Of a DNA stretch of 42,917 nucleotides, positions 5,787-42,917 are shown piece after piece (position 1 is the first letter of the stretch; each line of letters begins with the position of its first letter). This DNA is from a virus. Taxonomy: Duplodnaviria; Heunggongvirae; Uroviricota; Caudoviricetes. The translations under genes and the position numbers were made by a program. Where the stretch lies: IMG/VR virus record IMGVR_UViG_2718218102_000002; one strand, 5' to 3'. The notes below the pieces were generated by a model. That model was given only the letters and a program-made list of their open reading frames with translations. It was not told the origin of the DNA and ran no database searches.

Positions 5787-9188
<3,402 letters not shown>

Positions 9189-27944: not shown

Positions 27945-28073
27945 AACCCCACCTCGCAGACAAAGCGGGTGTAAATTAAGGGGATACTACGTATCGCAAT
28001 AAAGGCAGAAACGTAACAGATTCGGAGTCAGTGAATAACTCAGGTATTGGGTTATCAGCTAATATCGAGACTC

Positions 28074-28106
28074 AAAAAATGGAAAAACCCGCTCGACGGC
28101 GGGTTT
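28074..28106 (-). terminator. Putative intrinsic terminator upstream of the lysis cassette (tR'-like position)
   Basis: Minus-strand hairpin aaacccgc-cgtcga-gcgggttt followed by ttccatttttt, about 130 bp upstream of the S start. Confidence 0.45.
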
Positions 28107-28532
28107 AAGCTGTGTGACGAAGTAACCACTCTTAACAGCATAACCAATTTTTTACGTACGTAAACTACTAAATGATATTTGTGAGAATGCCACCGAGTGT
28201 TCAAAACACCACCACAAATGCATAAGAAAACTTCAACAAATAACCAGTTAATAATTTCCGATGTTATTTTTAGTTTGTTTAAATTAAGCTAAAGAATTAT
28301 AGAGCACTTATAAATAAGTGCCATTAATATAAATTAGCTAATAGATTTATTTTTGTTCAGACAAGAGCCATGAATAGGATTAGATAGAAAAGGTTCCGAT
28401 AAAAATAGAGATCTACTTCACAAATTAAATGAGAAACTAAAACTTACATCTTGAAATAATCACATTGATTAGATGAATATTTATCGCGCAGTGACATCAT
28501 TTTTTAATAATAGTTCAAAAAAAGGGCGTACA

Positions 28533-29615
28533 ATGAAAAAATTAACAGTGGCAATTTCTGCTGTAGCTGCATCAGTACTGATGGCGATGTCTGCTCAGGC
28601 AGCTGAAATTTATAATAAAGACAGTAACAAGCTGGATCTATACGGGAAAGTTAATGCCAAGCACTACTTCTCCTCTAATGATGCAGATGATGGTGATACT
28701 ACTTATGCCCGTCTTGGCTTCAAAGGTGAAACCCAAATCAACGATCAACTGACTGGTTTCGGTCAGTGGGAATATGAATTCAAAGGCAACCGTGCTGAAT
28801 CTCAAGGTTCTTCCAAAGACAAAACCCGTCTTGCATTTGCAGGCCTGAAATTTGGTGATTACGGCTCAATCGATTACGGCCGTAACTACGGTGTAGCATA
28901 CGACATCGGTGCGTGGACTGACGTTCTGCCAGAATTCGGTGGTGATACCTGGACCCAAACAGATGTGTTCATGACTGGTCGCACTACTGGTGTTGCAACT
29001 TATCGTAACAACGACTTCTTTGGTCTGGTCGATGGCCTGAACTTTGCTGCTCAGTATCAGGGTAAAAATGACCGCACTGACGTAACTGAAGCCAATGGTG
29101 ATGGTTTCGGTTTCTCCACTACTTATGAGTATGAAGGATTCGGCGTGGGTGCAACCTATGCTAAATCAGATCGCACTGACGGTCAGGTCGCCTATGGTAA
29201 GAGCAAATTCAATGCCTCCGGCAAAAATGCGGAAGTATGGGCTGCAGGCCTGAAATATGATGCGAACAATATCTATCTGGCTACCACATATTCTGAAACT
29301 CAGAATATGACCGTTTTTGGTAATAACCATATTGCAAACAAAGCACAAAACTTTGAAGCAGTAGCACAATATCAGTTTGACTTCGGTCTGCGTCCATCTG
29401 TTGCTTACCTTCAGTCAAAAGGTAAAGACCTTGGTGTTCATGGTGACCGAGACTTAGTCAAGTATGTCGATGTCGGTGCTACTTACTACTTTAATAAAAA
29501 CATGTCCACTTTTGTTGATTACAAAATCAACTTAATTGACGATAGTAAGTTTACCAAAACAGCTGGTATTGATACCGACGACATCGTCGCTGTAGGTCTG
29601 GTTTATCAGTTCTAA
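28533..29615 (+). CDS. Outer membrane porin, OmpC/OmpF/NmpC (Lc-like) family
   Basis: Start set at MKKLTVAIS with a cleavable signal peptide; classic porin N-terminus [16 protein letters not shown] and C-terminal VGLVYQF. Confidence 0.85.
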
Positions 29616-29632
29616 TCTGACTTACGAAAAAG

Positions 29633-29668
29633 ATATGTTGCGGGAGGCTTTGCCTCCGCAACATATAA
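29633..29668 (+). terminator. Palindromic hairpin downstream of the porin gene
   Basis: atatgttgcgggaggc-ttt-gcctccgcaacatata; no clear U-tract. Confidence 0.4.
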
Positions 29669-29743
29669 GTGGAGCCCTCAAGCCACTTCCTTTAGAAGCA
29701 CTACCTTGCTTCTTACTATATAAACCTTCTGTTATATATTACC

Positions 29744-29769
29744 CTTTATTTTGGGGGCGTTTCCACGCC
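29744..29769 (+). terminator. Putative intrinsic terminator
   Basis: ggggcgt-ttcc-acgcccc followed by atttttaa. Confidence 0.45.
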
Positions 29770-29803
29770 CCATTTTTAATAACTTTTAGTAAACAATTGC
29801 ATA

Positions 29804-30187
29804 TCAATTAGAATTATTAGCAACGATATCCATATCTAACCGGATATCTAATGCCATTAACATCCCTTCAATTATGCCCTCAGCCTTCTGTAACCTTTTC
29901 CCGATATAACCATCCGAGCAGCAATGCTTACTTGCCAGTGACATGAATGTCATACCACATACATAATAATCTACTAATAAATCGTGTAAATCGCTGTTGT
30001 TCTTTTTCAGACGGGCCATGCACCCGCAAATGATCATCGCGTCATCGTCACAACATTGCGGGCGAGATTTTACTTTTGAAGGAATTAATCCCTTAAAACC
30101 GGCGGCAATGGACGACCAGGTCACATCTTCATGATTATTAGCCGCCCACGCACCCCAACGCTCAAGAACCATCTGAATATCACGCAT
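29804..30187 (-). CDS. Late-gene antiterminator Q, DLP12 QuuD/phage 82-type
   Basis: Start set at [18 protein letters not shown], giving 127 aa. Cys-rich ([18 protein letters not shown]) and sits just upstream of the late region. Confidence 0.75.
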
Positions 30188-30409
30188 CAACTTACTCCAC
30201 AAAAATCAGACCAGAACGCCAATTACAAGCAAAAATCAACAAAACAGTATTAGTTGATTGTTATCTCTGACTTCATACTCCTGTTCCTGTCAGGGTTTTG
30301 GCGTAATTCTTCAGTATTCGGTAATCGGTCAAAACAGAACCGGGGAAACGATATAAGCGCAGACGCCCCCAGCGGTGGCGAAGAAGTTCTGCCATATTAA
30401 ACTCAAACA

Positions 30410-30772
30410 TCATTCATTCCCCATTTCGGTGATGGTCAGTTCCAGCCTCCCACCTTTGGTAACAGGCATCTTCACAACGCGGTAATCAACGACCTGAGCA
30501 TCATCCAGCCAGAAACCTGCTTTAGTGAGTGCGTCAAAAGCGGCTTTTTGCAGATTATCCAGGTCACGGCGACGGCGATCCGGCATGTGGCACTCAATGC
30601 GGATTTTCACAGGCATAGCCAGGCCGATATCCAGCATTGCGTTTTTAATGATTCGGGCGACGTTATCGCGGTATGCCTGCCCCTCTGCGCTGACGTGCGT
30701 GCGCCCGCGATTATGGCGGTAATAGCGATTATTGCTCGGAGGCCAGGGTAATGTGATGCTGTAGGTATTCAC
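30410..30772 (-). CDS. rusA: Holliday junction resolvase RusA
   Basis: 120 aa, starting [18 protein letters not shown], matching the E. coli RusA as recalled. Confidence 0.9.
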
Positions 30773-31059
30773 GCCTTAATAACCCCCTCTTTCAGCCACA
30801 TAACCTGTGTTCTCGCCATACCTTCCAGCGCGCATTCTTTTGCATATGCAGCATCGACAAAATGTGTGCGGCGGTCGATTTCGTCGTGGCAGGCAGAACA
30901 TGCAATGGTGGCAATCAGGTCTGGCGGTTTGGTACCGGTGCCGCACAATCCAGTCAGCCGGATATGTGCCAGTACAGACGTTTCAGGGTTGCCATTACAT
31001 ACGCCAGGGATTCTTACCTGGCATTCCCGACCACGCGCTGCTTTTCTCAAATCAGCCAT
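30769..31059 (-). CDS. YbcO-like protein (DUF1364), putative nuclease
   Basis: Start set at [14 protein letters not shown] (AGGAGG Shine-Dalgarno 5 nt upstream), giving 96 aa with a Cys cluster. ATGA overlap with the rusA start. Confidence 0.65.
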
Positions 31060-31222
31060 GACTCCTCCTTGCTGCCAGTCGCAACCATTTTTTATCAACC
31101 AGGCTGGCGGTATATCCGAGCAGTGTTGGTATTTCGGATGGCTTCAGCTCAGGCTTACGCTTACGACGATTTGATACTCTGTAGATGTGTCCGTTCATGA
31201 CACGAATAAGCGGTGTAGCCAT
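31052..31222 (-). CDS. NinE-like small basic protein (below the track length cutoff)
   Basis: Hand-translated 56-aa [59 protein letters not shown]. Start overlaps the ninB stop (TAATG) and stop overlaps the ybcO-like start. Confidence 0.4.
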   Translation of the reverse strand: MATPLIRVMNGHIYRVSNRRKRKPELKPSEIPTLLGYTASLVDKKWLRLAARRSHG

Positions 31223-31677
31223 TACGCCTCCTGCTTGTCGCGGAGCAGCTGGAACTCGCAGCTCTGCGGAATAGTCAGGTGGCAGCCAATATTCACCGCC
31301 CAGGCTTCAACCTTACACAGGAAGACATACATCTCTCCGGTATCAAGATCGGAGGTATGGCGTAACGACTGGATAGTGGTGATATCACCGGTTACGACAT
31401 CAACCAGGTCTTTGGTTTCATAACCGAGATATGTGTGTTTGAGAGCATCTTTTACCCAAGCTGGAGTGGCGAACGTTTTACCCCTGCTGATGAGGTATTC
31501 ACTGATTTCGCTGTACCACATGTGGCTGAGTGCATTCTGGGAAAGACTGCGTCTCTCGCGCCACGGTTTAAGCACCATGCGAAAGCATTTGCCGTCTTCC
31601 AGATAAGTCTGGATCTGCTGACCGACAGCGGTGAAGTTACCGCGATGTAATTTGATGCCATCTTGTGGGAGGTTCAC
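31222..31677 (-). CDS. ninB: NinB/YbcN-family recombination protein
   Basis: 151 aa; contains the SLSQN…W pattern recalled for NinB. Confidence 0.7.
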
Positions 31678-31944
31678 GCTTCACCTCCGCAGAGATCAAA
31701 CGCTGGATGCAAGACATCGCAGGTGCATTTCTGCATCTGTGACAAGGTGATGAGTTCAGATTGTGGTCGCATTTAAGTCCCCTTAAATGCGCAGAAGTCA
31801 CCGGAGTTGTTCAGGCTCCGATGAGAGGATTATGGCGGATTGATTACGATAAATCAAAACTATCTTGAAGCCAAAACAGTGATCTTCGCTTTAAAAACCT
31901 TGTATACTTTCACCTAATCACAGCCAGAACTATGGATCTAACCA

Positions 31945-32322
31945 ATGACCAACAAAGAAAACAAAGATAAATATATTAACAAGTTCAAGAAAGAGCTTTC
32001 AAAATATATACAACCAACTGCTGGAGTGGACATTCAATTATTTAACTCTAAGGATGGTGGTGGTGTAATTAAAGCCACTTTGAATAGAAGTGGAAAAAGA
32101 AAATCATCTATTGCAGGTAATTTTACTAAATTAGGTGAGGCAATTACCTCGAGTGGGCAGAGGGTTTTTGGTGGTGATCTATCAAATGTAAATTTTTACG
32201 GAACAAATACGATTTTTGATGGAGATACAATATTTTTAATTAAATCACCTGATTCAGAGGAGTGGTCATCACAAAAAGCTTCCAAAGACGTAGAGGGAAT
32301 CGTATTTGGAGGGAAAAAATGA
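31945..32322 (+). CDS. Hypothetical soluble protein (AT-rich opposite-strand cassette, gene 1)
   Basis: 125 aa, Lys/Gly-rich, no predicted TM segment; very low GC compared with flanking phage genes. Confidence 0.5.
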   Translation: MTNKENKDKYINKFKKELSKYIQPTAGVDIQLFNSKDGGGVIKATLNRSGKRKSSIAGNFTKLGEAITSSGQRVFGGDLSNVNFYGTNTIFDGDTIFLIKSPDSEEWSSQKASKDVEGIVFGGKK

Positions 32323-32747
32323 TTAACATTACTACTAAGGATGGCACTCAAGTCAGTGGTGAAGTAAGAGATCTAGTAATTCTTCTTGAAACTGATGGAA
32401 AAACGGTGTCTGATTATTTGCAGCCAATCCCTCCCAAAAAAGATACACACTGGAGCATGATTTTCATTCCGGTAGCAATTTATATACTACTTAATCTTGT
32501 ATACATTATTGCTCACCCATTATTTCCTGAAAAATATCTAAAAACATCAACATCTATATTTCTATTCATTTCCTTCATATTAAGTGCAATAGTAGCATAT
32601 TTTGTTTTCCATAAGCATAAATCTGCCACTCTATCCATATGCAGCTTAGTGTTCTTAGTGTTAATTGTAGGTGCTAACGTAGGGTTTATCAGTTACAGCG
32701 ACCTAACACAAAAAGCGACGCAAAAATTAGATAGTTTGTCTAAATAA
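32319..32747 (+). CDS. Hypothetical membrane protein, about 3 TM helices (AT-rich cassette, gene 2)
   Basis: Start set at MINITTKDG, with GGAGGG Shine-Dalgarno and ATGA overlap with the gene 1 stop. Soluble N-terminal ~45 aa, then three hydrophobic segments. Confidence 0.5.
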   Translation: MINITTKDGTQVSGEVRDLVILLETDGKTVSDYLQPIPPKKDTHWSMIFIPVAIYILLNLVYIIAHPLFPEKYLKTSTSIFLFISFILSAIVAYFVFHKHKSATLSICSLVFLVLIVGANVGFISYSDLTQKATQKLDSLSK

Positions 32748-32825
32748 TTATGTTGCCATGCGAAGTATGCATGGCTGCATGTCTGCCTTCCATTTAAAAT
32801 GGGCTAAGACCTATAACCCTAAATA

Positions 32826-33539
32826 TTATTCTTTATTATCTTCTTTACCACTTCGCACCATCCCGTTCGACTTGTTGCGGTTGTACTTCGCCTGAAGCAG
32901 CTGGATTGGCGTCGGGCCATGCTCGGCAGCCGGTGCTGCAATCGCCCGGCGCACAGGCGGTACTGGTTTGCCCTCGGTGACGCGCCTCTCCCACATGTCC
33001 AGCAGATCGCCGGCTTCACGCGCCAGCTCACCATGCGTTAACTGGCGCTCTGTGCTGCGGTGGCGCAGTTCGACGCAGATGTGGTACATGACAGGCTGTG
33101 ACCACGGGAAATGCTCGCTGGAAGTGAATTCGAAGGAACGATTACGCCAATCCCAGTATTCGGTTATGACTTGGTCAACAGTGATACCTAACGCCCCGCC
33201 ACTCTGCTTACACCACGCTACGAACTGGCCGGGCGACGGCAGGAATGGTCGCTCCTGTCGGCGGGCCACGCGCATTCCGGCGTTAACCTGCTCCATAGTG
33301 GTAATTCCATTTTCACGGAAAGCCATAACCCACTGACGGCGGATTTCGTTCAGCTCGTTCTGGTCGCGGTTCGCGAGGCTTGCCGGAAATGTCGCAAGCA
33401 GCTGGCTGAACACACCGTTGATGATCTGCGCCACCTGCTGCACCTGCGGCTTTTCGTCGTATTGTTCCGGCATGTTGTTGGCGATTCGACGCATCTGCTC
33501 ACGGTCAAAGTTAATCATCTGCGCGGCAATATTTTTCAT
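32826..33539 (-). CDS. P: Replication protein P (DnaB helicase loader)
   Basis: N-terminal ~110 aa (MKNIAAQMINFDREQMRRIANNMPEQYDEKPQVQQ…) matches lambda P as recalled; C-terminal part differs. Confidence 0.85.
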   Translation of the reverse strand: MKNIAAQMINFDREQMRRIANNMPEQYDEKPQVQQVAQIINGVFSQLLATFPASLANRDQNELNEIRRQWVMAFRENGITTMEQVNAGMRVARRQERPFLPSPGQFVAWCKQSGGALGITVDQVITEYWDWRNRSFEFTSSEHFPWSQPVMYHICVELRHRSTERQLTHGELAREAGDLLDMWERRVTEGKPVPPVRRAIAAPAAEHGPTPIQLLQAKYNRNKSNGMVRSGKEDNKE

Positions 33540-34465
33540 AGCTCCACCCCGTAAATCCAGTCAGTGTTTGTCAGGTCGAGTTTTGGTTTGCTGGCAGTCA
33601 CACCAGCCTGTTGCTTGTTGCGGTTAATTTCGAGCTGAGTCCACTTGTCGCGGAGTTTTGCTGGACTCAGCACGTTACCGGACCAGAAGTTGTCCTGGCA
33701 GGCCCAGCGGAACAGAACGCACATGTCGCGATGGTTACGCCCGTCACGCTCACGCATCAGGCGGATGTCGTTGGCCCACCCTGCAAAATTCGGTTTTCTG
33801 GCTGATGGCGCGATGGTCTTCACCATGTCAAACATCCACTCTGCGGCGGTCAGGTCTTCTGCTGTCCCCCACTTGCTGCCGCTCTGAATTGCAGCATCCG
33901 GTTTCACCACAGGAAGATCGTTTTCTGGCTGGTCAGAGGATTCGCCAGAATTCTCGGACGAAAAAGGTTTTATATTGTCTTTTGTTAGTTTGTCTTTTGT
34001 GTTTACCTGATTCGGGTAAACGTCTTTACCTGATTTGGGTAAACTTTTCTTACCTGATTCAGGTAAATTTACCTCTTTCAGGTAAACTTTATTTTTCTTA
34101 CCTGATTCGGGTAATGTTGACCATTCACTGACCACATTATTAATGCCGATATTCCGCCCGCTCTGAATAAAAATCCCACGCTTTACCAGAACACTTTTTG
34201 CAGCAGAACACTTGTGCGGCAATATCCCGGTCAACTCGGAAAGTTGCTCGTTGCTCACCCAATCCAGTTTTTTATTAAAGCCATATGTTTTGCGCATGAC
34301 AGCCAGGAAGACCAGAAGCTGGTGCTGTGTTAATCCGGCCAGCATCACAGCTTCCAGCAACTCATTTGCAATGCGCGTATAACCATCATCGAGATCTGCC
34401 ACGCGCGGCTCCTTTTGTGCCACATCCGGCACTGGAAAATTGAATATCTCAGCAGTGTTTGCCAT
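33536..34465 (-). CDS. O: Replication initiator O
   Basis: Start set at MANTAEIFNF (GGGAGG Shine-Dalgarno). N-terminal domain resembles lambda O (VADLDDGY, RKTYG-N); the gene contains the iteron array. Confidence 0.85.
   Translation of the reverse strand: MANTAEIFNFPVPDVAQKEPRVADLDDGYTRIANELLEAVMLAGLTQHQLLVFLAVMRKTYGFNKKLDWVSNEQLSELTGILPHKCSAAKSVLVKRGIFIQSGRNIGINNVVSEWSTLPESGKKNKVYLKEVNLPESGKKSLPKSGKDVYPNQVNTKDKLTKDNIKPFSSENSGESSDQPENDLPVVKPDAAIQSGSKWGTAEDLTAAEWMFDMVKTIAPSARKPNFAGWANDIRLMRERDGRNHRDMCVLFRWACQDNFWSGNVLSPAKLRDKWTQLEINRNKQQAGVTASKPKLDLTNTDWIYGVEL
34002..34115. repeat. ori: Origin of replication: five ~18-19-bp palindromic iterons (TTTACCTGATTCGGGTAAA-like) inside O, next to an AT-rich stretch (33961-34000)
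   Basis: Iterons at 34002-34020, 34025-34043, 34050-34067, 34068-34086 and 34098-34115. Confidence 0.75.
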
Positions 34466-34551
34466 AATTCCTCCCGCAATGAGTGTGTTACGATTTGCAC
34501 CTGAAAGTCGGTTCTGTTCGCGCAGACCGGCTTTCGCCATTTCTGAACCTG

Positions 34552-35097
34552 TCATATTGCCCCCAGCATGGTGGTGACCATCGCCATCAATGGACCAGCC
34601 AGATCCGGGTCCACACGAAACATCGACACAATGCCTTCACTCATCTCCTTCAGTTTCTGGTGGCGTGGTGCGTTGAGAATGACAGCCTGTTTTGCCTCAC
34701 TGAGTTCCTTTTCCATTTCAGCCAGCCGAGCCATGTAGCTATCCTGCTCAACCAGGTGGCCGCGATATTCCAGCGGTAGTACCGCCAGAATTGCCGGGGT
34801 CAGTTCACGCACGTTATTTCGGTATTTTTCAGAATCGAATTTGTTATCGAGAAAGCGGAACAGCTTCTGGCGTGCACGGCTGACATCATCAGGGAAATCG
34901 ATGGTGCCGCCGCCCTGCTCCCGATACTCATTCACAATGAGTGCGGCAACAACATCCTGATTATCTGCAGCCGACCAGGCGCGAACGGCATCACGGATTT
35001 TTTCGTGGCCTGGCGCCTGTTTTGTTTGAGAACGATTTATCACCGCAGTCGGGCTAAATCCGCTAGTCTGTTGGTATGTAAGTGGTTGCATAGTCAT
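34552..35097 (-). CDS. Hypothetical regulator in the cII position (CII-like or YdaT-like); function uncertain
   Basis: 181-aa ORF between cro and O; no family confidently recognised by eye. Confidence 0.4.
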   Translation of the reverse strand: MTMQPLTYQQTSGFSPTAVINRSQTKQAPGHEKIRDAVRAWSAADNQDVVAALIVNEYREQGGGTIDFPDDVSRARQKLFRFLDNKFDSEKYRNNVRELTPAILAVLPLEYRGHLVEQDSYMARLAEMEKELSEAKQAVILNAPRHQKLKEMSEGIVSMFRVDPDLAGPLMAMVTTMLGAI

Positions 35098-35121
35098 TGC
35101 CTTATCAGTTAACGCCGCAGT

Positions 35122-35349
35122 TTAGGCGGCAGAATTACTCGCGTTAAACAATGGTGCGAGGTCGGGACGAATATCTGCTGGTTTAATCTTTCCACCAGTG
35201 GCTGAGACAATTTTCATTACATAGCGGGCATCAATTCCGCCACCGTGTAGCCAACGCCAAACTGTGGGTTGGGCTACACCGCATAGATCTGCCAGTCGTT
35301 TTTGACTACCTGTAATACTGATTGCGAGTTGAATGGTTTGATTTGTCAT
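35122..35349 (-). CDS. cro: Cro-like HTH repressor
   Basis: 75 aa from the ATG at 35349 (track start is a TTG). HTH motif QKRLADLCGVAQPTVWRW; divergent from cI across the operator region. Confidence 0.7.
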   Translation of the reverse strand: MTNQTIQLAISITGSQKRLADLCGVAQPTVWRWLHGGGIDARYVMKIVSATGGKIKPADIRPDLAPLFNASNSAA

Positions 35350-35459
35350 TATCAATTCCTATTGGTATTGCAATGAATAAATAATAGCAATGCGTATTAA
35401 TCCAAGCAATAGCAAAACGTGTTTTGACCATCAATACGCAAGCGTATAAATTAAAACTT
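35350..35459. promoter_or_regulatory. Right operator/promoter region (oR with divergent pR and pRM-like promoters)
   Basis: Three ATAGCAAT/ACCAATAG-type sites spaced about 22-23 bp apart (35359-35375, 35381-35398, 35404-35418). Plus strand: TTGACC (35424-35429) and TATAAA (35445-35450) just before the cI ATG. Minus strand: TTGCTT-17nt-TATTAT upstream of cro. Confidence 0.5.
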
Positions 35460-36152
35460 ATGAAAAAAGAAACTCTTGCTGATCGCTTAAACCTAGCGAT
35501 GGAACAATCTGGAATGTCTCAAGGCGCTCTTGCAAAGGCGTCTGGCGTAGCTCAACCCACAATCTGGAGACTGACAAGCGGCAACGCGCGCGGCTCAACA
35601 AAAATTGTTGAAATAGCTAATGCATTGGGTGTTCGAACAGAATGGCTCTCATCAGGCATAGGCCCGATGAGAAATGACGGTCAACAATCAGGGAAGCCTG
35701 CTGTCAGCTATTCCAAATACTTTAAAATTGACGTTCTTGATATAGAAGTGAGTGCCGGGCCGGGAGTCATCAACCGTGAGTTTGTAGAAGTTCTACGCTC
35801 GGTTGAGTACTCGTTTGACGATGCTCGTCACATGTTCGATGGTAGGAAGGCAGAAAATATCCGCATCATTAACGTACGCGGTGACAGCATGTCAGGAACG
35901 ATTGAACCTGGTGATCTTCTATTCGTTGATATCACGGTTAAATCTTTCGACGGTGATGGTATCTATGCGTTTCTGTACGACGACACAGCCCATGTAAAGC
36001 GCCTGCAAATGATGAAGGATAAGCTGCTGGTTATCTCTGATAACAAAAGCTACTCACCGTGGGACCCGATCGAGAAAGATGAGATGAACCGGGTATTTAT
36101 CTTCGGGAAAGTTATTGGGAGCATGCCGCAGACGTATAGGAAGCATGGATAG
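35460..36152 (+). CDS. cI: CI-type repressor (N-terminal HTH plus C-terminal S24 LexA-like autopeptidase)
   Basis: HTH motif QGALAKASGVAQPTIWRL; GDSM and a downstream Lys (HVKRL) typical of the S24 Ser-Lys dyad. The ATG at 35460 is preferred over the track TTG at 35424. Confidence 0.85.
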   Translation: MKKETLADRLNLAMEQSGMSQGALAKASGVAQPTIWRLTSGNARGSTKIVEIANALGVRTEWLSSGIGPMRNDGQQSGKPAVSYSKYFKIDVLDIEVSAGPGVINREFVEVLRSVEYSFDDARHMFDGRKAENIRIINVRGDSMSGTIEPGDLLFVDITVKSFDGDGIYAFLYDDTAHVKRLQMMKDKLLVISDNKSYSPWDPIEKDEMNRVFIFGKVIGSMPQTYRKHG

Positions 36153-36232
36153 TACCAATTAAAAATTATCAACCGGGCATTGTGCTCATTCAGTAAAACA
36201 ACTTAATTATTCATTTTAGAATGGAGAACTTA

Positions 36233-37294
36233 ATGGATACTTTAAAATATGAGAAATTCTCTGATTTTGATCACAATGACCCATTTTTTGACTCTTTAAA
36301 AAAAGATTATAAAGAGTTTCCTCTTTGGTTAGAAAAAAAAGCCAGAGAAGGAGAATCAGCTTATGTGCTCTATGATGACAAGCATAAAATCGAAGGTTTT
36401 ATGTATCTAAAAGAAAATGATGATGCAAATGACATTAATCCAGCGCTCCCACCAGGACGTCATCTAAAGATAGGAACATTCAAATTTGAATCTAAAGGCA
36501 CCCTTCGCGGACAACGATTTCTAAAAAAAGCGTTTGACCATGCATTTTCATCAAAATCTGATGATATTTATGTTACTGTTTTCGACAAACACGTCCATCT
36601 AATAAAACTTTTCCAAACGTACGGATTTTACATTCATGGTGAAAAAGAAACACATAACGGGAAAGAGTTTGTATATGCGAGGTCTTTGCATGAGCCTTAT
36701 GGTGATATTTTATTAGATTACCCTCGAATAATGACATCAAGGGCCAACAAATATTTACTGGCGATTTATCCCGAATATCACACTAGACTATTCCCTGATT
36801 CAAAACTTGTAAATGAATCACCAGATATTGTCAAAGATATATCCCATGCTAACAGCATTCATAAAATTTACATATGTGGAATGCGTTCTGTGATGGGAAT
36901 GAAAAGAGGAGATATCATTGTCATCTATAGAACCGGAGACAAAAAAGGGCCAGCTCGCTATCGTTCTGTAGCCAGTACATTATGTGTAGTTGAGAGCGTA
37001 AAAAATATTTCTGAATTTTTAAGCGAAGATAGTTTTGTAGACTATTGTATTCGTTTTAGCGTATTTTCTGAAGATGAACTCAGAAAAATCTATAAAGAAC
37101 GTCGATACCCTTTCATTATAAGATTCACATACAATCTGTCTTTGCCAAAGAGACCCAATCGTGCTATTTTAATAGATCATGTGGGGCTAAATGGTTCGCG
37201 TGCATTCCGATGGAGTCACTTTAAACTCACAAATGAGCAGTTCTTAAAGATCATCGAGTTAGGCAAGATAAATGAAAGTTTTATTATCCATTAA
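36233..37294 (+). CDS. Hypothetical two-domain protein: possible GNAT-like N-terminal half and ASCH/PUA-like C-terminal half
   Basis: 353 aa from the second ATG (GGAG Shine-Dalgarno). N-terminal segment LRGQRFLKKAF…IYVTVFD…LFQTYGFYIHG loosely resembles GNAT motifs A/B. Domain calls are by eye and tentative. Confidence 0.55.
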   Translation: MDTLKYEKFSDFDHNDPFFDSLKKDYKEFPLWLEKKAREGESAYVLYDDKHKIEGFMYLKENDDANDINPALPPGRHLKIGTFKFESKGTLRGQRFLKKAFDHAFSSKSDDIYVTVFDKHVHLIKLFQTYGFYIHGEKETHNGKEFVYARSLHEPYGDILLDYPRIMTSRANKYLLAIYPEYHTRLFPDSKLVNESPDIVKDISHANSIHKIYICGMRSVMGMKRGDIIVIYRTGDKKGPARYRSVASTLCVVESVKNISEFLSEDSFVDYCIRFSVFSEDELRKIYKERRYPFIIRFTYNLSLPKRPNRAILIDHVGLNGSRAFRWSHFKLTNEQFLKIIELGKINESFIIH

Positions 37295-37649
37295 GCCTGA
37301 GTTTGCAGAAAAAATATTGAACGGAACAAAGCGGTTCGAGTTTCGTAAAGGTATATTCAAAAATCCGCAAATTAGCACCGTTGTTATTTATGCCACGATG
37401 CCATTAGGTAAAGTTGTTGGTCAATTCCGTATTGAATCAATACTAAGTGACGAACCGGAATCTCTTTGGAAAAAGACGGAAAAGCACGCAGGTATTTCTA
37501 AGCAATTTTATGACTCATATTATTCAGGTAGAGAAAAGGCCTACGCAATAAAAATTGGTGAAGTGGAAAGATATAAAGAACCAATTCCTATCTCTGCTCT
37601 AGGTAGTAATATTAAGCCACCACAATCATATCTTTACCTACCTGCGTAA
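37272..37649 (+). CDS. ASCH-domain protein (PUA-like fold)
   Basis: 125 aa; N-terminus MKVLLSIKPEFAEKILNGTKRFEFRK is typical of ASCH proteins. Overlaps the upstream gene by 23 nt. Confidence 0.65.
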   Translation: MKVLLSIKPEFAEKILNGTKRFEFRKGIFKNPQISTVVIYATMPLGKVVGQFRIESILSDEPESLWKKTEKHAGISKQFYDSYYSGREKAYAIKIGEVERYKEPIPISALGSNIKPPQSYLYLPA

Positions 37650-37653
37650 GAAT

Positions 37654-37680
37654 CCCGGCCACCGTGCCGGGTTTTCTTTT
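37654..37680 (+). terminator. Intrinsic terminator closing the cI operon
   Basis: cccggc-caccgt-gccggg followed by ttttctttt, 5 nt after the ASCH gene stop. Confidence 0.65.
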
Positions 37681-37764
37681 GTCCCCTCATCACACAAACC
37701 GTTCGAAAAACCACCACATCCTCCCTTCAGTTATCGCTATGCGATGCAAGTCACAAAATTAATT

Positions 37765-37870
37765 CTTTTTGCTATCAAACATTTAATATCAAAACACATC
37801 AACCAATAGCAATAAGTATTGATATCACCAATAGCAATAGCTATTATCACCATATCGCAACAACACAACG
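37765..37870. promoter_or_regulatory. Putative left operator region (oL) with repeated CCAATAGCAAT motifs
   Basis: CCAATAGCAAT at 37803-37813 and 37829-37839, plus ATAGC-related sequence at 37769-37781; same motif family as the oR sites. Confidence 0.4.
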
Positions 37871-37920
37871 ATACGGCAACCACCTGATTCACCGTTGCGA
37901 TGACCGCTTAGATCCGCAGT

Positions 37921-38331
37921 TTGAATTTCAGCAGGCTTCGGGGAGTGCGAGGGGTGAAACGGACGCGTGAACGTCGGTGTGACCAGCTGAAATTAACTCA
38001 ACATTTCATACCTCAGTCGCTTCAACGAGGCGGTTTAGTTATGACAACCGGCGGCCATCCACCGCCTGAATACGCGCAGAAGTCTCTATATGTTCAGCAG
38101 CCCAGCTTACGGGCAGGAGTTTTTATGGTTCATCAACATTACGGAACACAGACCGTTAATCGCGGTGCGGTCATGCCAGGAATGCTGGTCAAACACAAAG
38201 ATGGTACCTGGACTGCATCAGCTAATTTACGCGGACGGCTTTATCTGCATCGCGGCATCGAGCGCACTTATACCCGTGACTTGCTCGTGGAAGTTTTTCT
38301 CGACGGACGCGGCAACGGCCTGAATCACTAA
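37921..38331 (+). CDS. Hypothetical protein in the N position; Arg-rich N-terminal stretch; start codon uncertain
   Basis: Track ORF starts with TTG; internal ATGs at 38041 (MTTGG…) and 38128 (MVHQH…, AGGAG Shine-Dalgarno). The stretch [10 protein letters not shown] loosely resembles an N-type arginine-rich motif. Higher GC than neighbours. Confidence 0.3.
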
Positions 38332-38405
38332 CCCCCTTTCCTGTTTTCCTAATCAGCCTGGCATTTCGCGGGCGATATTTTCACAGCTATTTCAGGAGTT
38401 CAGCC

Positions 38406-38702
38406 ATGAACGCTTATTACATTCAGGATCGTCTTGAGGCTCAGAGCTGGGTGCGTCACTACCAGCAGATCGCCCGTGAAGAGAAAGAGGCAGAACTGGC
38501 AGACGACATGGAAAAAGGCCTGCCCCAGCACCTGTTTGAATCGCTATGCATCGATCATTTGCAACGCCACGGGGCCAGCAAAAAAGCCATTACCCGTGCG
38601 TTTGATGACGATGTTGAGTTTCAGGAGCGCATGGCAGAACACATCCGGTACATGGTTGAAACCATTGCTCACCATCAGGTTGATATTGATTCAGAGGTAT
38701 AA
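38406..38702 (+). CDS. gam: Gam (RecBCD inhibitor), short form
   Basis: 98 aa, starting [15 protein letters not shown], matching lambda Gam as recalled. Confidence 0.9.
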
Positions 38703-38707
38703 AACGG

Positions 38708-39493
38708 ATGAGTACAGCACTCGCAACGCTGGCAGGGAAGCTGGCTGAACGTGTCGGCATGGATTCTGTCGACCCACAGGAACTGATCACCACTCTTCGC
38801 CAGACAGCATTTAAAGGTGATGCCAGCGATGCGCAGTTCATCGCATTGTTGATCGTCGCCAACCAGTACGGCCTTAATCCGTGGACGAAAGAAATTTACG
38901 CCTTCCCTGATAAGCAGAACGGCATCGTTCCGGTGGTGGGCGTTGATGGCTGGTCCCGCATCATCAATGAAAACCAGCAGTTTGATGGCATGGACTTTGA
39001 GCAGGACAATGAATCCTGTACATGCCGGATTTACCGCAAGGACCGTAATCATCCGATCTGCGTTACCGAATGGATGGATGAATGCCGCCGCGAACCATTC
39101 AAAACTCGCGAAGGCAGAGAAATCACGGGGCCGTGGCAGTCGCATCCCAAACGGATGTTACGGCATAAAGCCATGATTCAGTGTGCCCGTCTGGCCTTCG
39201 GATTTGCTGGTATCTATGACAAGGATGAAGCCGAGCGCATTGTCGAAAATACTGCATACACTGCAGAACGTCAGCCAGAACGCGACATCACTCCGGTTAA
39301 CGATGAAACCATGCAGGAGATTAACACTCTGCTGATCGCCCTGGATAAAACATGGGATGACGACTTATTGCCGCTCTGTTCCCAGATATTTCGCCGCGAC
39401 ATTCGCGCATCGTCAGAACTGACACAGGCCGAAGCAGTGAAAGCTCTTGGATTCCTGAAACAGAAAGCCACTGAGCAGAAGGTGGCAGCATGA
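38708..39493 (+). CDS. bet: Bet (Red-beta single-strand annealing protein)
   Basis: 261 aa, starting [21 protein letters not shown], essentially lambda Bet as recalled. Confidence 0.95.
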
Positions 39494-40170
39494 CACCGGA
39501 CATTATCCTGCAGCGTACCGGGATCGACGTGAGAGCTGTCGAACAGGGGGATGATGCATGGCACAAATTACGGCTCGGCGTCATCACCGCTTCAGAAGTT
39601 CACAACGTGATAGCAAAGCCCCGCTCAGGAAAGAAGTGGCCTGACATGAAAATGTCCTACTTCCACACCCTGCTGGCTGAGGTTTGCACCGGTGTGGCTC
39701 CGGAAGTTAATGCTAAGGCGCTGGCCTGGGGAAAACAGTACGAGAACGACGCCAGAACCCTGTTTGAATTCACTTCCGGCGTGAATGTTACTGAATCCCC
39801 GATCATCTATCGCGACGAAAGTATGCGCACCGCCTGCTCTCCCGATGGTTTATGCAGTGACGGCAACGGCCTTGAACTGAAATGCCCGTTTACCTCCCGG
39901 GATTTCATGAAGTTCCGGCTCGGTGGTTTCGAGGCCATAAAATCGGCTTACATGGCCCAGGTGCAGTACAGCATGTGGGTGACGCGAAAAGATGCCTGGT
40001 ACTTTGCCAACTATGACCCGCGTATGAAGCGTGAAGGCCTGCATTATGTCGTGATTGAGCGGAATGAAAAGTACATGGCGAATTTTGACGAGATGGTGCC
40101 GGAGTTCATCGAAAAAATGGACGTGGCACTGGCTGAAATTGGTTTTGTATTTGGGGAGCAATGGCGATGA
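39490..40170 (+). CDS. exo: Exo (Red-alpha 5'-3' exonuclease)
   Basis: 226 aa, starting [30 protein letters not shown], essentially lambda Exo as recalled; ATGA overlap with bet. Confidence 0.95.
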
Positions 40171-40349
40171 AGCATCCTCACGATAATATCCGGGTAGGCG
40201 CGATCACTTTCGTCTACTCCGTTACAAAGCGAGGCTGGGTATTTCCCGGCCTTTCTGTTATCCAAAATCCACTGAAAGCCCAGCGGCTGGCTGAGGAGAT
40301 AAATAATAAACGAGGGGCTGTATGCACAAAGCATCTCCCGTTGAGTTAA
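40167..40349 (+). CDS. Hypothetical small protein (lambda orf60a position)
   Basis: 60-aa ORF from MKHPHD, with ATGA overlap to the exo stop. Confidence 0.45.
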
Positions 40350-40513
40350 GAACGAGTATCGAGATGGCACATAGCCTCGCTCAAATTGGAGTCAGGTTTG
40401 TGCCAATACCAGTAGAAACAGACGAAGAATTTCATACGTTAGCCACATCCCTTTCACAAAAGCTGGAAATGATGGTGGCGAAAGCAGAAGCAGATGAGAG
40501 AGACCAGGTATGA
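40322..40513 (+). CDS. Hypothetical small protein
   Basis: 63-aa ORF with a GAGGGG Shine-Dalgarno. Confidence 0.45.
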   Translation: MHKASPVELRTSIEMAHSLAQIGVRFVPIPVETDEEFHTLATSLSQKLEMMVAKAEADERDQV

Positions 40514-40593
40514 CAACCACTGAATGCATTTTTCTGGCAGCGGGCTTCATATTCTGTGTGCTTATGCTTGCCGACATGGGACTTGTTCAATGA
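40510..40593 (+). CDS. Hypothetical 27-aa hydrophobic peptide (below the track length cutoff)
   Basis: MTTTECIFLAAGFIFCVLMLADMGLVQ; ATGA overlaps with the genes on both sides. Confidence 0.3.
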   Translation: MTTTECIFLAAGFIFCVLMLADMGLVQ

Positions 40594-40805
40594 CACCTCA
40601 GCAAGAAAACGCCCTTCGCAGTATTGCCCGTCAGGCTAATTATGAAATCAAAAAAGCCAGACAGCAGTTTCCGGATAAAAACGTCGATGACATTTGCCGT
40701 AGCGTACTGAAGAAGCACCGCGAAACGGTAACGCTGATGGGATTCACACCGACTCATTTAAGCCTGGCGATCGGCATGTTAAACGGCGTCTTTAAGGAAC
40801 GGTGA
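40590..40805 (+). CDS. Hypothetical small protein
   Basis: 71 aa from MTPQQENALR (internal start of track ORF 40524-40805), chosen for its ATGA coupling to the upstream peptide. Confidence 0.4.
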   Translation: MTPQQENALRSIARQANYEIKKARQQFPDKNVDDICRSVLKKHRETVTLMGFTPTHLSLAIGMLNGVFKER

Positions 40806-40903
40806 ACATGAAAAACAAAATCATCATGGAGCTACAGGCTCCTTTTTTATTATTCGCATTCACCCTCAAGCGTATTAACCAACAATTCAGGGATTAATGA
40901 AAG

Positions 40904-41122
40904 ATGGCAGACATCATTGATTCAGCATCAGAAATTGAAGAATTACAGCGCAACACAGCAATAAAAATGCGCCGCCTGAACCACCAGGCTATATCTGCCA
41001 CTCATTGTTGTGAGTGTGGCGATCCGATAGATGAACGAAGACGCCTGGCCGTTCAGGGTTGTCGGACTTGTGCAAGTTGCCAGGAGGAGATCGAACTTAA
41101 GAACAAACAATGGGGACTGTGA
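40904..41122 (+). CDS. C4-type zinc-finger protein (TraR/DksA-like)
   Basis: 72 aa with CCECGDPIDERRR…CRTCASC. Confidence 0.6.
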   Translation: MADIIDSASEIEELQRNTAIKMRRLNHQAISATHCCECGDPIDERRRLAVQGCRTCASCQEEIELKNKQWGL

Positions 41123-41169
41123 TGGCCTCAAAGCAGCAAATTTCAACATCGTCCAACTGAGGTGTAAAA

Positions 41170-41409
41170 ATGTTCAGAATCATTTTTCCTAACACCTGGT
41201 ACGTCGACCACCACGGCACTCCCTGCAAAATCCTGCGTTCTACCCACAACAAAGTTCACTACATCCGAAAAGGCAGAACATGTATCGCCAGCATGTTCCG
41301 CTTTAATCATGACTTTGAACCTGTGAATAAAGCTGATGCAGATCGGATAGCAGAAGAGATCGAAACGGCAGAACACATTAAGAAGTTACGTGCCATACGC
41401 AGGAAATAG
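41170..41409 (+). CDS. Hypothetical protein
   Basis: 79-aa ORF with a GAGGTG Shine-Dalgarno. Confidence 0.45.
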   Translation: MFRIIFPNTWYVDHHGTPCKILRSTHNKVHYIRKGRTCIASMFRFNHDFEPVNKADADRIAEEIETAEHIKKLRAIRRK

Positions 41410-41548
41410 AAAAATTGATAAATTCAATACTGCATTTCTCAGCATTAAATTTATCTCTATGACCAGTCAAGAGATGTACCTGCCATGAGCTTAATATCAT
41501 GTCAGATATATCGGTCACAAACTCCCTCAGCAGCTAAGAGGAGGACAA

Positions 41549-41785
41549 ATGTCTCGACTAATCACTTTACAGGACTGGGCTAAAGAAGAATTTGGGGACT
41601 TAGCACCAAGTGAGCGAGTTCTGAAAAAATACGCGCAAGGGAAAATGATGGCCCCACCCGCTATAAAAGTTGGTCGCTACTGGATGATTGACCGAAATTC
41701 CCGTTTTGTAGGAACGCTTGCAGAACCGCAACTCCCAATAAACGCAAACCCAAAACTCCAACGGATAATCGCTGATGGCTGCTAG
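41549..41785 (+). CDS. xis: Excisionase (Xis-like)
   Basis: 78 aa, starting MSRLITLQDW with …PPAIKVGRYW, resembling lambda Xis as recalled. AGGAGG Shine-Dalgarno; 3' end overlaps int. Confidence 0.7.
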   Translation: MSRLITLQDWAKEEFGDLAPSERVLKKYAQGKMMAPPAIKVGRYWMIDRNSRFVGTLAEPQLPINANPKLQRIIADGC

Positions 41786-42917
41786 ACCCCGATCTCACAA
41801 AATCTCTATACCCAATTTATATTGCAAATTAGATAAGCGAACCGGAAAGGTATATTGGCAATACAAACATCCACTATCCGGTCGTTTTCATAGCTTAGGA
41901 ACTGATGAGAATGAAGCAAAACAAGTTGCTACTGAAGCAAATACCATTATTGCTGAACAACGTACCCGACAAATATTAAGCGTCAATGAGCGTCTGGAAA
42001 GAATGAAAGGCAGGCGCTCAGACATTACGGTGACAGAATGGCTTGATAAATATATTTCTATCCAGGAGGACAGGCTGCAACATAATGAACTAAGACCCAA
42101 CTCCTATCGGCAAAAAGGCAAACCCATTCGTCTTTTCCGTGAGCATTGTGGAATACAACACCTCAAGGATATTACCGCACTTGATATTGCCGAAATAATT
42201 GATGCTGTAAAGGCTGAAGGTCATAACAGGATGGCGCAAGTCGTGAGAATGGTGTTAATCGACGTCTTCAAAGAAGCACAACACGCAGGACATGTTCCGC
42301 CAGGATTTAACCCAGCGCAGGCAACAAAACAACCGCGAAATCGAGTAAACCGCCAAAGATTATCACTGCCCGAATGGCAGGCAATATTTGACAGCGTAAG
42401 CAGACGGCAGCCCTATTTAAAATGCGGGATGCTACTTGCTCTTGTCACTGGACAACGTTTAGGCGATATCTGCAATTTGAAATTCTCTGATATCTGGGAC
42501 GACATGTTGCACATTACTCAGAAAAAAACCGGTTCAAAACTTGCTATTCCGCTTAACCTGAAATGCGATGCTCTGAATATTACCCTTCGTGAAGTTATAT
42601 CTCAGTGCAGGGATGCTGTTGTTAGTAAATATCTGGTCCATTACCGTCACACAACCTCTCAAGCAAACAGAGGAGACCAGGTTTCTGCGAATACTCTGAC
42701 AACGGCTTTTAAAAAGGCCAGGGAAAAATGTGGCATAAAATGGGAGCAAGGAACTGCGCCCACATTTCATGAGCAGCGATCTCTGTCAGAACGGTTATAT
42801 CGGGAACAGGGTCTGGATACGCAAAAGTTGTTAGGCCATAAATCCAGAAAAATGACCGACCGATACAATGATGATCGTGGTAAAGACTGGATTATCGTAG
42901 ATATCAAAACAGCATAG
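41775..42917 (+). CDS. int: Tyrosine integrase (lambda Int family)
   Basis: 380 aa with the C-terminal catalytic region (…HEQRSLSERLY…LLGHKS…). Stop codon is the last three bases of the window. Confidence 0.9.
   Translation: MAARPRSHKISIPNLYCKLDKRTGKVYWQYKHPLSGRFHSLGTDENEAKQVATEANTIIAEQRTRQILSVNERLERMKGRRSDITVTEWLDKYISIQEDRLQHNELRPNSYRQKGKPIRLFREHCGIQHLKDITALDIAEIIDAVKAEGHNRMAQVVRMVLIDVFKEAQHAGHVPPGFNPAQATKQPRNRVNRQRLSLPEWQAIFDSVSRRQPYLKCGMLLALVTGQRLGDICNLKFSDIWDDMLHITQKKTGSKLAIPLNLKCDALNITLREVISQCRDAVVSKYLVHYRHTTSQANRGDQVSANTLTTAFKKAREKCGIKWEQGTAPTFHEQRSLSERLYREQGLDTQKLLGHKSRKMTDRYNDDRGKDWIIVDIKTA

Follow-up and report, generated by a model that had tools for sequence, protein, structure and literature searches.

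The stretch of DNA analysed here (the window) is IMG/VR virus record IMGVR_UViG_2718218102_000002 at its full length of 42,917 nucleotides (nt). It is a lambdoid prophage whose early region is 96–97% identical to those of phages 4A7 and Perceval, both isolated members of Bievrevirus, and of further isolated E. coli phages such as Lambda_4C10 and PhiR47_2. The + strand of the window corresponds to the leftward direction of lambda. The subject of this work is the slot directly downstream of the early-left promoter pL, where lambda has nutL and the antitermination gene N and where the window has an open reading frame (ORF) at positions 37921–38331 (+), together with the leader RNA that precedes the first gene of the pL operon, kil. 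The original prediction, made from the letters alone, had proposed that no canonical N gene is present at this pL-proximal position. Our analysis agrees with this, as neither an N family nor an N homologue was found.

The pL promoter and the 5′ end of the early-left transcript

The predicted pL promoter (TTGATA-17-TATTAT, positions 37819–37847, +) has 10 of 12 matches and is the top promoter-like site in 33000–42917. It is embedded in the left operator oL (37802–37845), where a repeat search reveals two 19-bp operator repeats, ACCAATAGCAATAAGTATT and ACCAATAGCAATAGCTATT, located 25 bp apart. The motif CCAATAGCAATA is perfect in both of them, at 37803 and 37828, and weaker copies are present in the cI-cro spacer (35354–35417), in which 10 CCAATAGCAATA-like matches stand against 3.6 expected, a count reached by 0 of 100 shuffles. 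The oL sequence varies among the three immunity types of this phage family, whose operators are unrelated to each other. Judging from the position of the promoter, transcription from pL would start near 37855.

The 5′ end of the pL transcript is predicted to form a hairpin (37854–37901, +), visible both as an inverted repeat and in the centroid fold, in which an 8-bp stem, AUCGCAAC/GUUGCGAU, encloses the CA-rich, C-over-G stretch CAACAACACAAC. The folding z score of this hairpin is only −1.2, and the C/G ratio over the first 60 nt of the transcript is 1.82. A comparable AUCG..CGAU hairpin is located at the equivalent place in phi80, HK225 and HK639. The hairpin loop with CAACAACACAAC (37858–37871) would be complementary to R1, the GU-rich region of the small RNA (sRNA) GcvB. 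The CA-rich 5′ end had also prompted the idea of an AgvB-like anti-sRNA, which was dropped because AgvB-type genes sit downstream of pR′ (PMC4104026) and not at pL. The segment had been described as relatively GC-rich, and the GC content over 37850–38350 is indeed 0.49–0.56, compared with 0.26–0.41 in the adjoining operator and immunity DNA.

The reading frame 37921–38331 and kil

The ORF 37921–38331 (+) is 136 amino acids (aa) in length, starts with TTG and has no Shine-Dalgarno sequence at its 5′ end, exactly as the original prediction had pointed out. Its sole family signal is Kil. Residues 60 to 136 match PHROG 294 ('Kil protein for bacterial septation inhibition') with an E value of 2e-38, and the NCBIfam KilR model NF008465 begins at residue 69 of the ORF, which corresponds to the ATG at 38125 (E 1.8e-17, profile positions 1–70 of 73). 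The gene starting at this ATG, kil (38125–38331, +), is the first gene of the pL operon and is followed by gam, bet and exo. Its Shine-Dalgarno sequence, AGGAG, is located 5 nt before the ATG (38115–38119, +), and residues 1–68 of its 68-aa product align with positions 13–80 of 83 in the PHROG 294 profile at E 1.3e-37. On the basis of full-length homology, it belongs to the Kil/KilR family of FtsZ inhibitors (Rac KilR and phi80 Kil). However, it scores 63 bits against NF008465, where the curated cutoff is 92 bits, and is therefore to be regarded as a subfamily relative and not as a KilR equivalog. The protein is 38–85% identical to the Kil proteins of phi80, HK225, KO-TP1, S9-5, HK639 and CobraSix, with 17 invariant columns in the alignment. 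Copies of kil that are 100% and 85% identical to that of the window are also carried by contigs labelled as metagenome-assembled genomes of Bacillota and Atopobium, respectively; these contigs are most likely mis-binned prophage DNA of E. coli type.

The part of the ORF that lies upstream of kil behaves differently. In 1219 of 5426 complete E. coli genomes, identified by an exact 39-mer, the frame is interrupted by a TAG at 38014, and some of about 120 IMG/VR and other copies have 5-nt or 1-nt insertions or deletions (indels) or a lost start codon in the upstream frame. Because of this TAG, the indels and the restriction of profile coverage to Kil, the N-terminal 68 codons of the ORF are best read as an untranslated leader which encodes no conserved protein. 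As judged from these alignments, the ORF is kil preceded by an untranslated leader of ~270 nt. A kil gene of 207 nt is annotated in phage 4A7 and in RefSeq genomes, and RefSeq annotation has only this gene and nothing across 37886–38003. Some GenBank records contain a 'Kil' of 128–139 aa; these long ORFs, found in several records, are 5′-extended and their annotation should be corrected.

Searches for known antitermination elements

The profile search for N-family proteins that had been proposed as a check was negative for the ORF, in both Pfam and PHROGs. A PHROG scan of 90 ORFs (at least 45 aa in length, 28000–42917) also lacks the N family among the 25 of 106 families listed. When the N proteins of lambda, P22, phi21 and phi80 were compared with the window using tblastn, nothing significant was found (best E 0.11 among the matches listed), and the arginine-rich motif (ARM)-like stretch encoded upstream of kil matched lambda N with an E value of 36.

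Scans for the RNA sites of antitermination gave the same picture, in keeping with the original failure to identify boxA or boxB elements by eye. A sense boxA (YGCTCTTTAAC, up to 2 mismatches) is absent from both early leaders, and boxA-like matches over the whole window occur at the level of chance (18 against 18.1). The transcribed leaders of the window also lack an rrn-type boxA (TGCTCTTTAACAA-like). No repeats are common to the pL leader and the pR operon, and there is no boxB-like target common to both operons. The ops element GGCGGTAGNNTG has one match with 1 mismatch, at 6085, which is away from the early region, and this count is below chance expectation. A scan of the whole window at the Rfam gathering thresholds returned IS009 only, and a scan of 33000–39000 at E ≤ 10 returned nothing within 37650–38400. 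In structure prediction, the second check that had been proposed, the whole 277-nt leader is no more stable than its shuffles (z +1.0).

For the put RNAs, which replace N in HK022, an alignment was made of 10 putL and putR sequences from HK022, HK639, phiEt88, UPF_BP1, CobraSix, S9-5 and PdC23, which have 29 invariant columns in common. A profile hidden Markov model (HMM) built from 7 putL sequences recovers all seven, including the divergent putL of PdC23, as well as 3 putR sequences outside the model (E 1e-5 to 1e-24), and gives nothing in the early region of the window (nhmmer, E > 2). The put covariance model, run over 28000–42917 with filters off, gave a best E value of 1.2 and no match in the leader; this is mostly a test by sequence because the consensus structure of the model is poor (9 pairs). 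In neither search was an HK022-type put RNA found in the window. Finally, the scan for intrinsic terminators detected no + strand terminator-like site between 37855 and 38125.

The right operon was examined for the corresponding elements. The gene cro and the cII-like gene are located 24 nt apart (35098–35124), which leaves no room for nutR and tR1. The junction between them contains only one hairpin, unrelated to nut elements, GCCGC-CUAAACU-GCGGC (35114–35130, −), which has the cro stop codon in its loop and is not followed by a U-run. Its stem recurs with a different loop in HK639 and CobraSix. In the annotation of HK639, an 'M3-like RNA' is placed right after the YdaT-type cII gene. Further along the operon of the window, the cII-like gene overlaps O, so that there is no spacer at this place.

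The pL-proximal slot in relatives

Comparison with relatives reveals what is missing from the window. Positions 38004–38064 are homologous to the stretch which comes right after the terminator tL1 in relatives, with 82–95% identity for phi80 and HK225. In phi80, where nutL, N and tL1A are annotated in this order, homology to the window picks up again immediately after tL1A, and in HK225, Klebsiella phage KO-TP1 and Enterobacter phage BHUENT6 the homologous stretch likewise follows a terminator. A Kil-anchored scan of GTDB species representatives yielded 22 loci, five of which have the same module and make up, with the four phages, a set of nine relatives. In 9 of 9, a GC-rich hairpin with a T5–T6 run is located 0–8 nt before the sequence CATACC, and the region from pL to this terminator contains either boxA/boxB and N-type ORFs or a put RNA.

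In the window and in the copies of 4A7, AZ162 and O157, the terminator hairpin is missing and only ATTT, ACTT or ACCT is left. Positions 38004–38006 (+), which read TTT here and CTT or CCT in relatives, appear to be the decayed remnant of the ancestral tL1 T-run and rank among the commonest polymorphisms. Upstream of this remnant, the slot is filled in the window family by ~150 nt without a detectable relative outside E. coli. It includes a family-specific, non-coding leader segment (37888–38003, +) which occupies the place of nutL, N and tL1, or of putL, ORFs and terminator, in the relatives. The comparison with the nine relatives thus reveals that the antitermination cassette and its terminator are absent together. 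The leader of the window is shared by the plaque-forming isolates 4A7, Perceval and PhiR47_2 (PMC9928086).

A conserved leader RNA upstream of kil

Between the lost terminator and kil lies an RNA element formed by two hairpins, H1 and H2 (38004–38072), which in relatives from Escherichia, Klebsiella, Enterobacter, Citrobacter, Siccibacter and others is always located directly after the first pL terminator. H1 (38007–38043, +) has a basal helix, CAUA/UAUG, which pairs the AUG at 38041–38043, and an apical stem that covaries. In a structure alignment of 10 phage and prophage sequences, six pairs of H1 show compensatory double changes, and 93.7% of the H1 cells are paired as compared with 32–46% when the partners are slid. 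There are 18 double-change cells, a number reached by 0 of 500 shuffles, and the covariation score is 0.318 as against 0.074 or less. The window, BHUENT6, KO-TP1, phi80 and the genomic loci have apical stems that differ wholly in sequence but stay paired. The minimum free energy (MFE) of folding of 38004–38072 corresponds to a z score of −2.28. Invariant U-G pairs place H1 on the strand transcribed from pL.

The AUG paired in H1 opens an upstream ORF (uORF, 38041–38124, +) which starts MTTGGHPPP and is in frame with kil in the window. In relatives this uORF is 10 aa, 21 aa or ~40 aa in length, or out of frame. Inside it lies H2 (GGCGG-CCAUCCA-CCGCC, 38051–38065, +), which is 90% paired in the alignment and shows no compensatory changes. 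Three loci carry a 5-nt deletion which alters the uORF peptide and keeps H2. Since H2 survives such peptide-changing deletions, conservation of the uORF and H2 is at the level of RNA. Neither hairpin has a match in Rfam. H1/H2 most likely tunes the translation or the stability of the toxic kil message.

A proposed mode of early transcription without an antitermination gate

The arrangement described above suggests how the early-left operon might work. After loss of repressor, RNA polymerase would start near 37855 and, meeting no N gene, nut site, put RNA or terminator, would pass straight into kil-gam-bet-exo. The order seen in relatives is pL, an antitermination element (nutL and N, or putL and ORFs), tL1, the H1/H2 leader RNA and kil. 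In the window family, the antitermination element and tL1 are both missing, with ~150 nt of E. coli-specific sequence in their place and only the decaying T-run marking the junction. Because the terminator which is overridden in relatives is absent too, this arrangement points to the lack of an early-left antitermination gate rather than to a different one. We therefore consider it rather probable, though far from certain, that early transcription in this family is ungated by antitermination, that pL reads unimpeded into kil-gam-bet-exo and that Q (assigned by Pfam PF06530, E 8e-54) is the only antiterminator left. Since the left cassette and its terminator are missing and the right operon has no slot for nutR and tR1, delayed-early expression would most likely be constitutive after repressor loss, with Q alone controlling the late genes. 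As an alternative to a divergent N, the original prediction had suggested that the phage uses another antitermination mechanism and that the ORF is unrelated. The ORF is indeed unrelated to N, but another antitermination mechanism was not demonstrated, as the searches for put, rrn-type boxA and ops were all negative.

Several observations weigh against an ungated operon. In the distal part of the pL operon, ahead of xis and int, there are terminator-like sites (40231–40253 and 40828–40842, the latter with a T6 run), and because of them a read-through mechanism could still be useful. The untranslated leader of ~270 nt is C-rich and thus a potential target for Rho, and the terminator scan covers intrinsic sites only. 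The three immunity types carry the segment 37888–38003 almost without change, and the start of the conserved block coincides exactly with the base of a long hairpin predicted there. Common polymorphisms in this hairpin are mostly compatible with pairing, although the same sequences had served to optimise the structure. In AZ162 and PhiR47_2, which represent a sibling immunity type, the 70-nt cro-cII spacer contains a perfect rrn-type boxA, CGCTCTTTAACAA, and there is no N gene. This suggests that some family members use Nus-factor protection without N, and hence that such protection is in use somewhere in the family. Lastly, the start of pL transcription near 37855 is a predicted position.

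In another reading, the segment 37888–38003, with its predicted stem-loops P1 (37888–37958) and P2 (37959–37978), would be a new cis-acting RNA which, like HK022 put, modifies the polymerase, or which blocks Rho, so that N is not needed. The segment sits at the nutL/putL position of relatives, immediately after the common 5′ hairpin, and the boundary of the block conserved across immunity types coincides with the base of P1. Variants which would disrupt the pairing are singletons, and terminator-like sites are still present downstream, at 40231 and 40828. However, the folding energy of the segment is that of shuffled sequence (MFE z −0.05), and no second copy is present in the right operon or elsewhere in the window. 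The segment is found in 2209 of the 5426 complete E. coli genomes (at least 90% identity), and has no homologues in other phages or, by nhmmer (E > 1), at the 22 Kil loci from other Enterobacteriaceae. Searches of phages, of Kil loci of other genera and of E. coli genomes gave only near-identical copies and no divergent homologues in which covariation could show. The diversity of the segment (0.025–0.03) is about half that of synonymous sites in kil and gam (0.045–0.056) and close to that of the kil-gam spacer (0.033). Similarity to the put family is absent, and the first terminator that such an RNA would have to override has itself been lost. We regard a new cis-acting RNA of this kind as unlikely. 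In 40 RefSeq records among the matches listed, no annotated feature lies under the segment.

The segment also resembles, weakly and co-linearly, a nutL leader of the phi80 type. A gapped alignment of the two has a z score of 1.6–2.1, with 10–21 of 300 shuffles equally good, and local alignments are at chance. The segment 37888–38003 may therefore be what decay has left of an ancestral nutL-N region.

It is less likely still that the leader acts through a peptide. A mini-ORF with a GTG start (37954–38016, +; ~20 aa, or longer when it runs on in frame into kil as it does here) encodes the ARM-like motif and might be translated, either into a minimal N-like or other RNA-binding peptide or into a leader peptide with a regulatory role. 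GGGGAG, located 8 nt upstream of the GTG, is a plausible Shine-Dalgarno sequence. In 276 complete E. coli genomes this GTG is replaced by ATG. Among the examined IMG/VR copies, the ATG variant comes together with the TAG at 38014, at which the frame ends in many relatives, to give a clean ORF of 20 codons. Of six substitutions in the common variants, four are synonymous. The resemblance to an N-type ARM noted in the original prediction is real: among the 85,830 residues of the window's six frames, R.R[ED]RR is found once, at 37960 and hence in the N slot. However, it is not statistically compelling, since generic arginine-rich 8-mers are present at 49 loci, so that ~0.15 would be expected by chance per 270-nt leader.

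Natural variation argues against translation of the mini-ORF. Its start is lost (GGG) in one variant and its frame is shifted by a 5-nt insertion in others, while the most divergent variant has four non-synonymous changes to one synonymous change. The arginine codons coincide with a CG-rich palindrome, CGGACGCGUGAACGUCGG, and may therefore be a by-product of the nucleotide sequence. A boxB-like target common to both operons, on which an N-like peptide would act, is absent, and lambda N requires more than its ARM, as it contacts NusA and the polymerase through residues beyond this motif. The mini-ORF is unannotated in the 40 RefSeq records mentioned above, and tblastn with the MKRTRERR... peptide returned only the same 16 phages and no N protein with such an N-terminus. 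The mini-ORF is probably not a gene and possibly a remnant of the 5′ end of N; the stretch KRTRERR would be either a chance occurrence or a stump of the ancestral N.

It is very improbable that the window has a put RNA of HK022 or HK639 type, or an rrn-type boxA/Nus-factor site, that has diverged too far to be recognised. HK639 does combine the YdaS/YdaT-type cro-cII architecture with a putL-like RNA, and the boxA of the sibling immunity type lies between cro and cII. Against this stand the 29 invariant put columns, an nhmmer search in which even the PdC23 putL, part of the model, and three putR sequences outside it are recovered but the window gives no match, and the lack of a sense boxA within 2 mismatches in either early leader. 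To read the whole ORF 37921–38331 as a divergent N that starts at a non-ATG codon, perhaps fused to Kil, is scarcely credible: the frame is open from 37921 into kil in the window, 4A7, Perceval and PhiR47_2 and long 'Kil' products are annotated in GenBank, but natural variation (the TAG at 38014 and frameshifting indels in relatives) contradicts it, as do profiles which cover the last 68–77 residues only and carry no N-family signal, and kil has a strong Shine-Dalgarno sequence and an ATG of its own at 38125.

All in all, it is only a small possibility that the leader holds a new RNA or peptide device. Equally slim is the prospect of a wholly new element in this region, be it 37888–38003, alone or with the ARM-like micro-ORF, as an undescribed antitermination or anti-Rho device, or H1/H2 as a new class of cis-regulatory leader for kil.

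Other features of the early region and the window

The immunity region on the other side of pL is of lambdoid layout. A YdaS-type cro (35125–35355, −) and a YdaT-type cII-like gene (34555–35097, −), both recognised by family profile matches, are followed further left by O and P (−), and a LexA-like cI gene (+) ends at 36152. Two cargo genes (36221–37649) take the rex position between cI and pL and match the PADLOC candidate defence system PDC-M11A/B with E values of 2e-133 and 7e-52. In the annotation of PhiR47_2, the pair at this position is a GevT toxin and a GevA antitoxin (ASCH domain). The cargo differs in other relatives, with a SIR2 protein in O157 and a transmembrane pair in Perceval. 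The operon of cI and the cargo genes is closed by an intrinsic terminator found in the terminator scan (37654–37681, +; CCCGGC-CACCGT-GCCGGG, then TTTTCTTTTG). Homology among relatives with different cargo begins exactly at this terminator (query position 54–55). On the far side of the flagged interval, the order of genes is gam, bet, exo and so on, down to xis and int.

ORFs antisense to pR transcription (31945–32747, within 31680–32826), one of them weakly 7TM-like, are located between P and ninB. A porin gene (PF00267, E 2e-151; 28473–29615) lies directly after Q, on the strand opposite to pR transcription; the position is like that of nmpC in DLP12. Given these antisense genes near P/ninB and after Q, early and late transcripts would need to cross them in antisense. 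Far from the early region, a full-length IS009 match (Rfam RF02111, 221 bits) is present at 1675–1873 (−) and overlaps a minus-strand ORF (1635–2216).

Implications and comparison with known systems

Lambda N/nut and HK022 put RNA are the textbook means of timing delayed-early genes in lambdoid phages. The family described here, present in ~2200 of 5426 complete E. coli genomes and including plaque-forming isolates, has neither of these systems nor their terminator. If its early transcription is ungated, then a natural design that is very common among lambdoid prophages does without the N checkpoint, which bears on the control of induction timing, kil toxicity and int/xis expression in the resident prophages of E. 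coli. Should the leader instead hold a device of its own, it would join N/nut and put as a third solution, found in ~40% of complete E. coli genomes; and if H1/H2 forms a new regulatory class, it would control the toxic kil across enterobacterial lambdoid phages. Kil and N-less lambdoid phages are already known. However, the joint absence of the N/put cassette and tL1 from so common a family, and the H1/H2 RNA, a covariation-supported leader element upstream of kil that is not in Rfam, appear to be undescribed in the literature searched.

Among known phages, phi80 and HK225 have an early-left region most directly comparable to that of the window, in that pL, a 5′ AUCG..CGAU hairpin, the H1/H2 RNA and a kil homologue come in the same order. 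However, in phi80, HK225 and KO-TP1 the space between pL and H1 contains elements which the window lacks: a boxA (TGCTTTTTAACAA) and a boxB-like core, as well as N or other ORFs and an intrinsic terminator. The put phages HK022 and HK639 resemble the window in being lambdoid without N, with the put element sitting after pL, and HK639 also in its layout of YdaS-type cro and YdaT-type cII. In contrast to these two phages, the window has no match to put sequences or profiles, no left/right pair of elements and no terminator such as follows the put leaders. Rac KilR and phi80 Kil are homologous to the window protein over their full length and their genes are found, as here, in a pL operon upstream of recombination genes, but in the window kil is the very first gene of this operon.

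Antitermination by rrn-type boxA and Nus factors acts in rRNA operons and CRISPR arrays (PMC7665894). Within this family, such a boxA is located in the cro-cII spacer of the sibling immunity type and not in the early operons of the window type, whose 24-nt spacer has the GCGGC-stem hairpin in its place. The closest parallel to the regulatory logic proposed for the window is provided by N-independent lambda derivatives (nin5), in which independence from N arises through lost terminators and not through another antiterminator. The nin5 mutations are laboratory deletions in the right operon of a phage that still bears N. In contrast, the window represents a natural and widespread family, in which N and tL1 are both absent from the left operon and the right operon has no slot for tR1.

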